DNA of 6,498 nt from a virus (lineage: Duplodnaviria > Heunggongvirae > Uroviricota > Caudoviricetes): the IMG/VR virus record IMGVR_UViG_2681813233_000001; one strand, given 5' to 3'. Both the position numbers and the translations under genes were made by a program. Below, piece after piece: positions 1 through 6,173 of this stretch (the first letter of the stretch is position 1; the number at the start of each line of letters is the position of its first letter). The notes below the pieces were generated by a model. The model was not told the DNA's origin and did not search any database. It was given only the letters and a program-made list of their open reading frames with translations.

Positions 1-63
1 GCATTTGAATCCGGGCTGCGACAATCAACAGAGGAGGAGAAGAGTGACAGCAGAGCTGCGTAA
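1..63 (+). CDS. B: Portal protein gpB, C-terminal fragment (CDS starts upstream of the window)
   Basis: Frame 1 is open from the window edge to TAA at 61-63 (AFESGLRQSTEEEKSDSRAA*). It overlaps the C start at 44 by 20 nt, as at the lambda B/C junction. Only 20 codons are visible, so the identity rests on synteny and memory of lambda. Confidence 0.55.
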   Translation, partial: AFESGLRQSTEEEKSDSRAA

Positions 64-1363
64 TCTCCCGCATATTGCCAGCATGGCCTTTAATGAGCCG
101 CTGATGCTTGAACCCGCCTATGCGCGGGTTTTCTTTTGTGCGCTTGCAGGCCAGCTTGGGATCAGCCGCCTGACGGATGCGGTGTCCGGCGACAGCCTGA
201 CTGCCCAGGAGGCACCCGCGACGCTGGCATTATCCGGTGATGATGACGGACCACGACAGGCCCGCAGTTATCAGGTCATGAACGGCATCGCCGTGCTGCC
301 GGTGTCCGGCACGCTGGTCAGCCGGACGCGGGCGCTGCAGCCGTATTCGGGAATGACCGGTTACAACGGCATTATCGCCCGTCTGCAACAGGCTGCCAGC
401 GATCCGATGGTGGACGGCATTCTGCTCGATATGGACACACCGGGCGGGATGGTGGCGGGAGCATTTGACTGCGCTGACATCATCGCCCGTGTGCGTGACA
501 TAAAACCGGTATGGGCGCTGGCCAACGACATGAACTGCAGTGCAGGTCAGCTGCTTGCCAGCGCCGCCTCCCGGCGTCTGGTCACGCAGACCGCCCGGAC
601 AGGCTCCATCGGCGTCATGATGGCTCACAGTAATTACGGTGCTGCGCTGGAGAAACAGGGCGTGGAAATCACGCTGATTTACAGCGGCAGCCATAAGGTG
701 GATGGCAACCCCTACAGCCATCTACCGGATGACGTCCGGGAAACACTGCAGTCCCGGATGGATGCAACCCGCCGGATGTTTGCGCAGAAGGTGTCGGCAT
801 ATACCGGCCTGTCCGTGCAGGCTGTGCTGGATACCGAGGCTGCAGTGTACAGCGGTCAGGAGGCCATTGATGCCGGACTGGCTGATGAACTTGTCAACAG
901 CACCGATGCGATCACCGTTATGCGTGATGCACTGGATGCACGTAAATCCCGTCTCTCAGGAGGGCGAATGACCAAAGAGACTCAATCAACAACTGTTTCA
1001 GCCACTGCTTCGCAGGCTGACGTTACTGACGTGGTGCCAGCGACGGAGGGCGAAAACGCCAGCGCGGCGCAGCCGGACGTGAACGCGCAGATCACCGCTG
1101 CGGTTGCGGCAGAAAACAGCCGCATTATGGGGATCCTCAACTGTGAGGAGGCTCACGGACGCGAAGAACAGGCCCGCGTGCTGGCAGAAACCCCCGGTAT
1201 GACCGTGGAAACGGCCCGCCGCATTCTGGCCGCAGCACCACAGAGTGCACAGGCGCGCAGTGACACTGCGCTGGATCGTCTGATGCAGGGGGCACCGGCA
1301 CCGCTGGCTGCAGGTAACCCGGCATCTGATGCCGTTAACGATTTGCTGAACACACCAGTGTAA
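44..1363 (+). CDS. C: Head maturation protease / minor capsid protein gpC (S49/ClpP-like serine protease), 439 aa
   Basis: GTG start at 44 preceded by GAGGAGGAG (31-39); 439-codon ORF ending TAA 1361-1363. Translation VTAELRNLPHIASMAFNEPLMLEPAYARV... matches lambda gpC as I remember it. Candidate catalytic Ser166 (codon AGT 539-541) lies in an NCSAGQ motif. The ORF-track start at 5 (TTG) lies inside the B reading region and has no ribosome-binding site. Confidence 0.9.
   Translation: MTAELRNLPHIASMAFNEPLMLEPAYARVFFCALAGQLGISRLTDAVSGDSLTAQEAPATLALSGDDDGPRQARSYQVMNGIAVLPVSGTLVSRTRALQPYSGMTGYNGIIARLQQAASDPMVDGILLDMDTPGGMVAGAFDCADIIARVRDIKPVWALANDMNCSAGQLLASAASRRLVTQTARTGSIGVMMAHSNYGAALEKQGVEITLIYSGSHKVDGNPYSHLPDDVRETLQSRMDATRRMFAQKVSAYTGLSVQAVLDTEAAVYSGQEAIDAGLADELVNSTDAITVMRDALDARKSRLSGGRMTKETQSTTVSATASQADVTDVVPATEGENASAAQPDVNAQITAAVAAENSRIMGILNCEEAHGREEQARVLAETPGMTVETARRILAAAPQSAQARSDTALDRLMQGAPAPLAAGNPASDAVNDLLNTPV
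968..1363 (+). CDS. Nu3: Capsid scaffolding protein Nu3, nested in-frame in the 3' third of C (131 aa from ATG 968; alternative in-frame ATG at 758 gives 201 aa)
   Basis: In-frame ATG at 968 preceded by AGGAGGG (958-964), same frame and stop as C. The product (MTKETQSTTVSATASQADV...) is Ala/Gln/Glu-rich and low-complexity, typical of a scaffold. The lambda database entry places the start at the ATG equivalent to 758, which has no obvious ribosome-binding site here. The end coordinate is certain; the start is ambiguous. Confidence 0.6.
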   Translation: MTKETQSTTVSATASQADVTDVVPATEGENASAAQPDVNAQITAAVAAENSRIMGILNCEEAHGREEQARVLAETPGMTVETARRILAAAPQSAQARSDTALDRLMQGAPAPLAAGNPASDAVNDLLNTPV

Positions 1364-1372
1364 GGGATGTTT

Positions 1373-1705
1373 ATGACGAGCAAAGAAACCTTTACCCATT
1401 ACCAGCCGCTGGGCAACAGTGACCCGGCTCATACCGCAACCGCGCCCGGCGGATTGAGTGCGAAAGCGCCTGCAATGACCCCGCTGATGCTGGACACCTC
1501 CACCCGTAAGCTGGTTGCGTGGGATGGCACCACCGACGGTGCTGCCGTTGGCATTCTTGCGGTTGCTGCTGACCAGACCAGCACCACACTGACGTTCTAC
1601 AAGTCCGGCACGTTCCGTTATGAGGATGTGCTCTGGCCGGAGGCTGCCAGCGACGAGACGAAAAAACGGACCGCGTTTGCCGGAACGGCAATCAGCATCG
1701 TTTAA
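1373..1705 (+). CDS. D: Head decoration protein gpD, 110 aa
   Basis: ATG 1373 with AAGGGA (1362-1367) 5 nt upstream; stop TAA 1703-1705. Translation [27 protein letters not shown]... matches lambda gpD. The ATG at 1367 is in frame but overlaps the ribosome-binding site. Confidence 0.9.
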
Positions 1706-2846: not shown

Positions 2847-3224
2847 TTGCCCGTCTTCAGGTCGCTGGGTGAGCAACTGAACCGTGATGTCAGCCTGACG
2901 GGGACGAAAGAAGAACTGGTGCTCCGTGTGGCAGAGCTGGAAGAGGAGCTTGATGACACGGATGACGCTGCCGGTCAGGACACATCTGTCAGCCCGGAAA
3001 ATGCGCTGACCGGACATGAAAATGAGGTGGTATCAGCGCAGCCGGATACCGTGATTGATACGGCTGCTCTGGTCACGGTCGTGGCACTGGTGACGCTGCA
3101 TACTGATGCACTTCACGCCACGCGGGATGAGCCTGTGGCATTTGTGCTGCCGGGAACGGCGTTTCGTGTCTCTGCCGGTGTGGCAGCCGAAATGACAGAA
3201 CGCGGCCTGGCCAGAATGCAATAA
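2847..3224 (+). CDS. FI: gpFI-like DNA-packaging / head assembly protein, 5' end frameshifted relative to its native ATG at 2828 (possible pseudogene or sequencing error)
   Basis: The ORF 2847-3224 encodes ...SLGEQLNRDVSLTGTKEEL...DEPVAFVLPGTAFRVSAGVAAEMTERGLARMQ, matching lambda gpFI. The native-looking start ATG 2828 (GGAGGAG at 2818-2824) reads MTKDELIARLQVAG and stops at TGA 2870-2872 in a different frame. The long frame has only TTG 2847 as a start and no in-frame ATG until near its 3' end. Confidence 0.6.
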   Translation: MPVFRSLGEQLNRDVSLTGTKEELVLRVAELEEELDDTDDAAGQDTSVSPENALTGHENEVVSAQPDTVIDTAALVTVVALVTLHTDALHATRDEPVAFVLPGTAFRVSAGVAAEMTERGLARMQ

Positions 3225-4179: not shown

Positions 4180-4571
4180 AACATACTGAACTCCGTGCAG
4201 CCGTACTGGATGCACTGGAGAAGCATGACACCGGGGCGACGTTTTTTGATGGTCGCCCCGCTGTTTTTGATGAGGCGGATTTTCCGGCAGTTGCCGTTTA
4301 TCTCACCGGCGCTGAATACACGGGCGAAGAGCTGGACAGCGATACATGGCAGGCGGAGCTGCATATCGAAGTTTTCCTGCCTGCTCAGGTGCCGGATTCA
4401 GAGCTGGATGCGTGGATGGAGTCCCGGATTTATCCGGTGATGAGTGATATCCCGGCACTGTCAGATTTGATCACCAGTATGGTGGCCAGCGGCTATGACT
4501 ACCGGCGCGACGATGATGCGGGCCTGTGGAGTTCAGCCGATCTGACTTATGTCATTACCTATGAAATGTGA
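4176..4571 (+). CDS. U: Tail terminator protein gpU, 131 aa
   Basis: ATG 4176 overlaps the Z stop (ATGA at 4176-4179); stop TGA 4569-4571. Translation [43 protein letters not shown]... matches lambda gpU. Confidence 0.9.
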
Positions 4572-4578
4572 GGACGCT

Positions 4579-5319
4579 ATGCCTGTACCAAATCCTCTGG
4601 CACCGGTGAAAGGGGCCGGGACCACCCTGTGGGTTTATAAGGGGAGCGGTGACCCTTATGCAAACCCGCTTTCAGACGATGACTGGTCGCGTCTGGCAAA
4701 AGTTAAAGACCTGACGCCCGGCGAACTGACCGCTGAGTCCTATGACGACAGCTATCTCGATGATGAAGATGCAGACTGGACTGCGACCGGGCAGGGGCAG
4801 AAATCTGCCGGAGATACCAGCTTCACGCTGGCGTGGATGCCCGGAGAGCAGGGGCAGCAGGCGCTGCTGGCGTGGTTTAATGAAGGTGATACCCGTGCCT
4901 ATAAAATCCGCTTCCCGAACGGCACGGTCGATGTGTTCCGTGGCTGGGTCAGCAGTATCGGTAAGGCGGTGACGGCGAAGGAAGTGATCACCCGCACGGT
5001 GAAAGTCACCAACGTAGGACGTCCGTCGATGGCAGAAGATCGCAGCACGGTAACAGCGGCAACCGGCATGACCGTGACGCCAGCCAGCGCTTCCGTAGTG
5101 AAAGGGCAGAGCACCACGCTGACCGTGGCATTCCAGCCGGAGGGCGCAACTGACAAGAGCTTCCGTGCGGTGTCAGCGGATAAAACAAAAGCCACCGTGT
5201 CGGTCAGTGGTATGACCATCACCGTGAAAGGTGTTGCTGCAGGCAAGGTCAACATTCCGGTTGTATCCGGTAATGGTGAACTTGCTGTGGTTGCAGAAAT
5301 CACCGTCACCGACAGTTAA
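4579..5319 (+). CDS. V: Major tail tube protein gpV, 246 aa, with C-terminal Ig-like (Big_2-type) domain
   Basis: ATG 4579 with GAGGA (4570-4574) upstream; stop TAA 5317-5319. Translation [42 protein letters not shown]... matches lambda gpV. The ORF-track start at 4549 overlaps U and has no ribosome-binding site. Confidence 0.9.
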
Positions 5320-5334
5320 TCCGGAGAGTCAGCG

Positions 5335-5757
5335 ATGTTCCTGAAAACCGAATCATTTGAACATAACGGTGTGACCGTCACGCTTTCTGAACTGTCAGCC
5401 CTGCAGCGTATTGAGCATCTCGCCCTGATGAAACGGCAGGCAGAACAGGCGGAGTCAGACAGCAACCGGAAGTTTACTGTGGAAGACGCCATCAGAACCG
5501 GCGCGTTTCTGGTGGCGATGTCCCTGTGGCATAACCATCCGCAGAAGACAAAGATGCCGTCCATGAATGAAGCCGTTAAACAAATTGAGCAGGAAGTGCT
5601 TACCACCTGGCCCACAGAGGCAATTTCTCATGCTGAAAACGTGGTAATGCGTCTGTCCGGTATGTATGAGTTTGTGGTGAATGATGCCCCTGAACAGGCA
5701 GAGGACGCCGGGCCTGCAGAGCCTGTTTCTGCGGGAAAGTGTTCGACGGTGAGCTGA
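5335..5757 (+). CDS. G: Tail assembly chaperone gpG, 140 aa
   Basis: ATG 5335 with GGAGAG (5323-5328) upstream; stop TGA 5755-5757. Translation MFLKTESFEHNGVTVTLSELSALQRIEHLALMKRQAEQ... matches lambda gpG. Confidence 0.9.
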   Translation: MFLKTESFEHNGVTVTLSELSALQRIEHLALMKRQAEQAESDSNRKFTVEDAIRTGAFLVAMSLWHNHPQKTKMPSMNEAVKQIEQEVLTTWPTEAISHAENVVMRLSGMYEFVVNDAPEQAEDAGPAEPVSAGKCSTVS

Positions 5758-6173
5758 GTTTTGCCCTGAAACTGGCGCGTGAGATGGGGCGACCCGACTG
5801 GCGTGCCATGCTTGCCGGGATGTCATCCACGGAGTATGCCGACTGGCACCGCTTTTACAGTACCCATTATTTTCATGATGTTCTGCTGGATATGCACTTT
5901 TCCGGGCTGACGTACACCGTGCTCAGCCTGTTTTTCAGCGATCCGGAGATGCATCCGCTGGATTTCAGTCTGCTGAACCGGCGCGAGGCTGACGAAGAGC
6001 CTGAAGATGATGTGCTGATGCAGAAAGCGGCAGGGCTTGCCGGAGGCGTTCGTTTTGGCCCGGACGGGAATGAAGTTATCCCCGCTTCCCCGGATGTGGC
6101 GGACATGACGGAGGATGACGTAATGCTGATGACAGTATCAGAAGGGATCGCAGGAGGAGTCCGGTATGGCTGA
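5335..6173 (+). CDS. T: Tail assembly chaperone G-T fusion made by programmed -1 ribosomal frameshift at 5733-5739; the T-frame portion is 5739-6173
   Basis: Slippery heptamer G_GGA_AAG at 5733-5739 in the G zero frame, 6 codons before the G stop. The -1 frame continues open from 5739 (VFDGELSFALKLAREMGRPDWRAMLAGMSSTEYADWH...) to TGA 6171-6173 and matches lambda gpT. The T frame has no ribosome-binding site or ATG of its own. Confidence 0.8.
5733..5739 (+). promoter_or_regulatory. -1 programmed ribosomal frameshift slippery site GGGAAAG (recoding signal for G-T)
   Basis: Heptamer of X_XXY_YYZ form, with GGA at 5734-5736 and AAG at 5737-5739 as zero-frame codons of G; the position matches the known lambda G/T frameshift site. 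Confidence 0.8.

Follow-up and report, generated by a model that had tools for sequence, protein, structure and literature searches.

Introduction

The scaffold and protease roles considered here come from established lambda genetics and biochemistry. In phage Mu, where the genes are named I and Z, translation of the scaffold begins at an in-frame codon within the 3' part of the head protease gene, and the two proteins share their C-terminus. Protease and scaffold are likewise in frame and co-terminal in the herpesviruses, as UL26 / UL26.5 of HSV-1 and UL80 / UL80.5 of CMV. There, the common C-terminus brings the protease into the procapsid together with excess scaffold. Protease-scaffold fusions that work without a nested gene also exist, an example being gpO of phage P2. 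For lambda itself, Nu3 is reported to have a scaffold role (PMC3224144) and is scored as essential (PMC10695390), and genetic work placed it in overlap with gene C (Shaw and Murialdo 1980, cited in PMC8508860).

The window, which is the whole stretch of 6498 bases analysed here, is a late-gene block of lambda type, as seen from its open reading frames and the lambda record. Over its first 1400 bases, nucleotide identity is 98.4% with lambda J02459 4375-5774 and reaches 99.0% with other lambdoid phages. A lambda coordinate equals the window position plus 4374. The sequence and its comparison across a family of homologues make it very probable that region 44-1363 is translated from two in-frame starts, and that Nu3 is the 131-aa, 13.4-kDa product of 968-1363.

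The gene block

The gene order in the window is B-C/Nu3-D-E-FI-FII-Z-U-V-G/T-start of H, as in lambda. This includes the order portal, protease/scaffold, decorator and major capsid protein, which is also present in phages D2, ev017, phiARM81ld, Salvo, JS26, UF_RH7, iEPS5 and RcExplorer. The genes around the locus are:

1..63, plus strand: 3' end of portal gene B (lambda B end 4437 = window 63), with its TAA at 61-63 and a 20-nt overlap with the start of C
31..39, plus strand: Shine-Dalgarno (SD) of gene C (GAGGAGGAG), anti-SD duplex of -12.0 kcal/mol for GTG 44
44..1363, plus strand: gene C (lambda C 4418-5737), starting at GTG and encoding a head maturation protease of 439 aa whose C-terminal part is the scaffold
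1373..1705, plus strand: gene D, head decoration (lambda D 5747-6079), the next gene after C
1761-2786: gene E, at the position of the major capsid protein in the gene order

Several features of the neighbouring genes were seen in passing. Gene D has adjacent in-frame ATGs at 1367 and 1373, of which lambda uses 1373; phage PhiR70_1 annotates D from the equivalent of 1367, and the AAGGGA at 1362-1367 fits 1373 (region 1367-1375). Directly 3' of D lies a GC-rich hairpin followed by a T run (1723-1747, stem 1723-1731/1736-1744), and another lies directly 3' of E (2789-2812; ATGGCCCTTCGGGGCCAT followed by TTTTCTCT). Both look like terminators within the late operon. Gene FI is apparently frameshifted: its ATG 2828 meets TGA 2870-2872 after 14 codons (region 2828-2872). 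The cause is one additional C at 2863, as judged against phiSTEC1575-Stx2k, whose intact FI is the closest; the remainder of FI is in the next frame (2847-3224). This is either a sequencing error or the mark of a defective prophage. Finally, the slippery heptamer GGGAAAG at 5733-5739, which is the known -1 frameshift site of lambda G/G-T, is found at the end of G (5335-5757), and the T frame is open from 5739 to 6173.

Gene C and its protease fold

The product of gene C matches PHROG 53, "head maturation protease", with E = 6.6e-187, and a C protein identical to that of the window occurs in many E. coli prophages. Its N-terminal side carries a serine protease domain of the S49 (SppA/ClpP-clan) type with a Ser/Lys dyad. 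Pfam PF01343 (Peptidase_S49) lies on residues 150-297 (E = 5.9e-44), and the dyad consists of Ser166 (codon 539-541) and Lys218 (codon 695-697), both of which are invariant columns in the protein alignment. Ser166 is aligned within the MxxSxG motif in the alignment to the SppA structure 3RST. A sequence search for solved structures found none of C or Nu3 themselves. The extent of the fold is:

284..937, plus strand: S49/SppA-type serine protease fold, C residues 81-298, from the phmmer alignment to SppA structures 3RST/4KWB

The tail of C after residue 298 is 141 aa. The initial annotation had described a scaffold nested in, and co-terminal with, the protease gene, and this agrees with an S49 domain that is followed by a tail matching scaffold PHROG families. 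It had also called the C-terminal part rich in Ala, Gln and Glu. This holds only approximately: residues 309-439 are indeed rich in Ala (21.4%), with Thr next (9.9%), then Glu (7.6%), Val (7.6%) and Gln (6.1%), and Gln and Glu are not particularly abundant.

Candidate starts for Nu3 in the window

Three in-frame starts have been annotated for Nu3 or follow from the sequence. They share the stop TAA 1361-1363, at which the 201- and 131-aa products both end.

662..664, plus strand: GTG start of the 233-aa "capsid assembly protein" of the lambda imm21 record, SD -6.4 kcal/mol, within the protease fold
758..760, plus strand: ATG for Met239, the GenBank-conventional Nu3 start (201 aa), SD -3.8 kcal/mol, within the protease fold
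958..964, plus strand: internal Shine-Dalgarno AGGAGGG, -10.8 kcal/mol, encoded by Ser-Gly-Gly codons, with a 4-nt spacer after AGGAGG
968..1363, plus strand: Nu3 scaffold gene as judged here, with its ATG at 968-970; 131 aa, 13,395 Da, pI 4.35, sharing both frame and stop with C
930..1033, plus strand: least-structured stretch of the C mRNA, of low GC, around and just past ATG 968

The positions of both ATGs and of AGGAGGG 958-964, and the product sizes of 201 and 131 aa, had been given before and stand as read from the sequence. The same is true of the correspondence between ATG 758 and the conventional lambda start: it falls at lambda 5132, where J02459 begins "nu3 (capsid assembly;201)".

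SD strength was scored for every in-frame ATG, GTG and TTG of C (n=37) as the duplex between 16S rRNA, at its 3' end, and the bases from -20 to -4. The strongest is that of GTG 44 (-12.0 kcal/mol), followed by ATG 968 (-10.8) and then, well behind, by GTG 662 (-6.4), making ATG 968 the sole internal start codon of C among the 37 with a strong SD. The initial annotation was therefore right that ATG 968 has a strong SD, second only to that of GTG 44, and that ATG 758 is without an obvious ribosome-binding site, as its duplex of -3.8 kcal/mol is background. The only purine run near ATG 758, GGGAAA at 738-743, is 15-20 nt upstream.

On its own, the SD at 968 is only suggestive. The gene is rich in purines, and 60 of 1000 dinucleotide shuffles of C produced an SD of at least this strength before some internal ATG in frame (P about 0.06); an out-of-frame AGGAGG/ATG pair also occurs nearby, at 858-870. 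What we regard as decisive for ATG 968 is the position of the SD-ATG pair together with its conservation.

Position is given by the fold. As the S49/SppA alignment spans C residues 81-298, Met309 (ATG 968) is 10 residues beyond the end of the fold and Met239 (ATG 758) is inside it. An in-frame start with its SD, AGGAGGG 958-964 plus ATG 968, is thus found at the boundary between protease and scaffold. The mRNA is also open at this point. When folding was computed for 439 sliding windows of 70 nt, the 8 least-folded were every one centred at 965-998, and the GC content in the first 36 nt after ATG 968 is 0.42 vs 0.61 for the C gene. The local folding energy at ATG 758 is average, ranking 163 of 439.

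These results bear on the conventional view that Nu3 starts at ATG 758 and is a protein of 201 aa and 20.8 kDa, as annotated in J02459, HK630 and phage 434 and represented by PHROG 8940. Such a product would carry the final 59 residues of Peptidase_S49, and so would open with residues torn from the protease fold, and its start would be served by a background SD in mRNA of average structure. We consider this start highly unlikely. The record of phage 434 (GenBank OL657226) itself bears a remark beginning "real Nu3 start ...".

The out-of-frame pair noted above opens a small reading frame, from ATG 870 to TGA 969-971 (33 codons), and a separate AGGAGG lies ahead of it at 858-863. At its 3' end, the TGA and the ATG of Nu3 share bases as ATGA, the kind of overlap that is typical of termination-reinitiation coupling. 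One could imagine that this frame, in the lambda clade only, feeds ribosomes to Nu3 initiation or tunes it, and so helps to set the ratio of scaffold to protease. We give this very little credence. An SD-led frame in an alternative register that ends at the boundary start was found in only 3 of 55 homologues (see below), and within the lambda clade the encoded peptide varies freely and has an internal stop in 3 loci. It was rejected as a coupling device and is probably due to chance.

Comparison across homologues

A tblastn search of phage genomes gave 772 records with a relative of C. When viral contigs were scanned with the C protein itself, all copies obtained were 98-100% identical and uninformative on conservation, and a diverse alignment led by a distant member was used instead. 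The sample comprised the annotated regions of 12 diverse phages plus 80 loci from the viral-contig scan with that alignment. Clustering at 85% identity left 58 representatives. In 55 of these, the S49 fold is followed by a long tail (115 aa or more), which measures 115-207 aa.

All 55 long-tail homologues have an in-frame start codon 0-45 residues past the end of the fold (52 ATG, 2 GTG and 1 TTG). This boundary start is the internal in-frame start with the best SD in 35 of the 55, where 4.7 are expected by chance. Under a null model in which the best SD falls at a random internal start codon, 35 was reached in none of 200,000 simulations. A dG of -6 or below was found for 69% of boundary starts vs 4.7% of 1049 other internal starts (Mann-Whitney P about 1e-30). 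In 7 of the 55, the boundary ATG has a weak SD (-3.2 to -5.4). Among these long-tail homologues there was no comparative signal for an internal start other than the boundary start.

The protein alignment of the representatives separates the candidate starts. The Met309 column is Met in 48 of the 58, and the Met239 column is Val, Ile or Leu in 56 and Met in only one, which is the window's own lambda clade. Outside that clade the Met239 codon is missing from every homologue, including one with 83% domain identity. A functional start at the equivalent of lambda 5132 is therefore not what was found: its SD is -3.8, it is inside the S49 fold and its Met is present in 1/58. In 76 distinct close relatives, ATG 758, ATG 968 and AGGAGG are all invariant, so that these do not tell the starts apart; the constancy of ATG 758 there, which might be taken in its favour, carries no weight at such low divergence.

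A GGAG-type motif is found at the matching place in distant homologues despite different overlapping amino acids. The residues under the motif are Gly-Gly in lambda and D2, Arg-Ser in Salvo, Lys-Glu in JS26, Leu-Glu in UF_RH7 and Gln-Glu in RcExplorer. Retention of the motif over differing amino acids is what one expects of a translation signal and not of a protein constraint. The record of the Xylella phage Salvo annotates the nested boundary start and its ribosome-binding site.

This pattern also bears on whether there is internal initiation at all. Most genome annotations give one gene here, and with P2 gpO as a precedent it could be supposed that full-length C is the only product and that free scaffold is released from it by autoproteolysis. 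Against this, the linker is variable and of low complexity, and yet 48 of 58 homologues have Met at this point in it, preceded by an SD that persists over differing amino acids. Such a pattern is difficult to account for unless translation starts there. In addition, lambda genetics established that Nu3 and C are overlapping genes (Shaw and Murialdo 1980, as cited in PMC8508860). Of all the readings weighed, autoproteolysis alone appears the least probable, its chance being next to negligible.

A further possibility is that ATG 758 and/or GTG 662 are used besides ATG 968, giving a major 131-aa scaffold and minor longer isoforms with a separate role. Weak, leaky initiation is compatible with the sequence, and GTG 662 has a modest SD (-6.4) and is the annotated start in lambda imm21. 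Both codons are within the protease fold, in normally structured mRNA, and a start is conserved at neither, since most homologues have Ile, Val or Leu there (49 of 58 at GTG 662). With the comparative signal confined to the boundary start, longer isoforms seem very improbable. As the start of Nu3 in its own right, GTG 662 (233 aa) was rejected, as was ATG 920 (147 aa), SD and conservation lacking in each.

Some members of the family have almost no tail. In three S49 homologues (L092, L094 and L095) only 28, 23 and 21 aa follow the fold. Two short-tail genes are annotated, in Burkholderia vB_E173 and Marinobacter AS1, and are 310-322 aa long. In each case a long gene for a "major capsid head protein" follows, and a decorator gene between the two is lacking. 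The existence of tail-less S49 homologues fits a tail that is a separable scaffold module, and suggests that in these phages the scaffold function is elsewhere, as in the HK97 layout.

The scaffold part and its product

PHROG 8399, "head scaffolding protein", covers the 131-aa Nu3 from end to end (1-131 of 131), and PHROG 1999 (135 aa) is co-linear with it within 5 residues. The tail of C also matches PHROG 8940, "capsid assembly protein", of 201 aa. Gene calls on 522 contigs include the exact 131-aa frame of the window, and those on 165 contigs include the version found in lambda. Within the tail, the alignment shows one well-conserved block only, which extends from lambda to Rhodobacter and Xylella phages:

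1097..1243, plus strand: conserved core within the scaffold part, at about residues 44-92 of Nu3 (AAVAAENSRIMGILNCEEAHGREEQARVLAETPGMTVETARRILAAAPQ), with PHROG 1999 and 17040 matches

The nested scaffold part of phages D2 (L085 1816-2418) and ev017 (L086 1798-2400) is larger, at 200 aa. It contains three tandem copies of a "CEEAxGRExLA...MTVExARxILAA" module, of which lambda has one.

The Catalano laboratory reportedly treats gpNu3 as a 13.4-kDa protein, and the computed mass of 13,395 Da agrees with this value. Purified gpNu3 was reportedly also sequenced from its N-terminus, by Ziegelhoffer et al. in 1992 (J Biol Chem). This N-terminal sequencing and the 13.4-kDa mass would already have settled the Nu3 start.

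How the region may be translated

The SD, the open mRNA, the fold boundary and conservation in the family all point to ATG 968, and it is on these grounds that Nu3 is proposed to start there. Ribosomes initiating at GTG 44, a start with a strong SD and a weaker codon that lies within the end of B, would make the 439-aa gpC, consisting of the S49 Ser/Lys protease fold (81-298), a linker and the scaffold tail. Separate ribosome binding at AGGAGGG 958-964, with initiation at ATG 968, would yield Nu3, predicted to be an acidic, Ala-rich protein identical to the last 131 residues of gpC. ATG 758 would then be an ordinary Met239 codon in the protease fold and not a start.

Since Nu3 has an ATG where C has a GTG, and this ATG follows a strong SD in unfolded mRNA, more Nu3 than protease would plausibly be made. 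As the tail is common to both proteins, few protease copies could co-assemble with many scaffold copies in the procapsid. The scaffold would be degraded later.

Annotation of the nested gene

Databases do disagree on the start, and to this extent the ambiguity seen in the initial annotation stands; it does not extend to the evidence, since SD, mRNA accessibility, domain boundary and family conservation all favour 968. Nu3 is given as 201 aa from ATG 758 in the J02459, HK630 and phage 434 records, the record of lambda imm21 starts it at GTG 662 and so makes it 233 aa, and PHROG contains both a 131-aa family (8399) and a 201-aa family (8940). Many phage records have a single gene here and leave the nested gene unannotated. 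Copies of window 700-1400 with at least 90% identity are present in 3229 of 5426 complete E. coli genomes, at up to 6 places per genome. In RefSeq E. coli, "S49 family peptidase" is the sole annotation and the nested gene is absent in 12 of the 12 records listed.

The ambiguity between 201 and 131 aa is an old error of database annotation and not new biology. The nested arrangement of protease and scaffold was already known from lambda, and the sole value of the present result is the correction of an annotation. It matters chiefly for that reason, and new biology does not follow from it. Where the 201-aa sequence is used, in cloning, two-hybrid work, structure prediction or PHROG 8940, the scaffold is extended by 70 residues of a broken protease domain. 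The rule for the family as a whole is to seek an SD-ATG within about 45 residues past the S49 fold.

Comparison with known systems

Lambda C/Nu3 (J02459 4418-5737) is essentially the same locus, with 98.4% nucleotide identity in the C region. The two have in common the GTG at which C starts, the AGGAGGG-ATG within it and the stop. They differ by a few substitutions, and FI is frameshifted in the window. In the MTV(E/K)TARR stretch of the scaffold, the window has Glu, where we take lambda to have Lys.

Phage Mu gene I / Z has a different head module. The herpesvirus systems differ in that a separate promoter and transcript, instead of an internal ribosome-binding site, give rise to the shorter product, and in that the assemblin fold is unrelated to S49.

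One gene of phage P2, encoding gpO, gives protease and scaffold functions, as C does (cited in PMC8508860). There, the scaffold form is produced by autoproteolysis, and a separate nested product is not reported. In HK97-type heads, the head protease is upstream of the capsid gene, as here, whereas the scaffold "delta domain" is fused to the capsid protein and is not in the protease gene, with no nested gene present (PMC8508860). Among the homologues of C, it is the short-tail members (L092, L094 and L095), two of which precede a long capsid gene without a decorator, that resemble this HK97-type layout.
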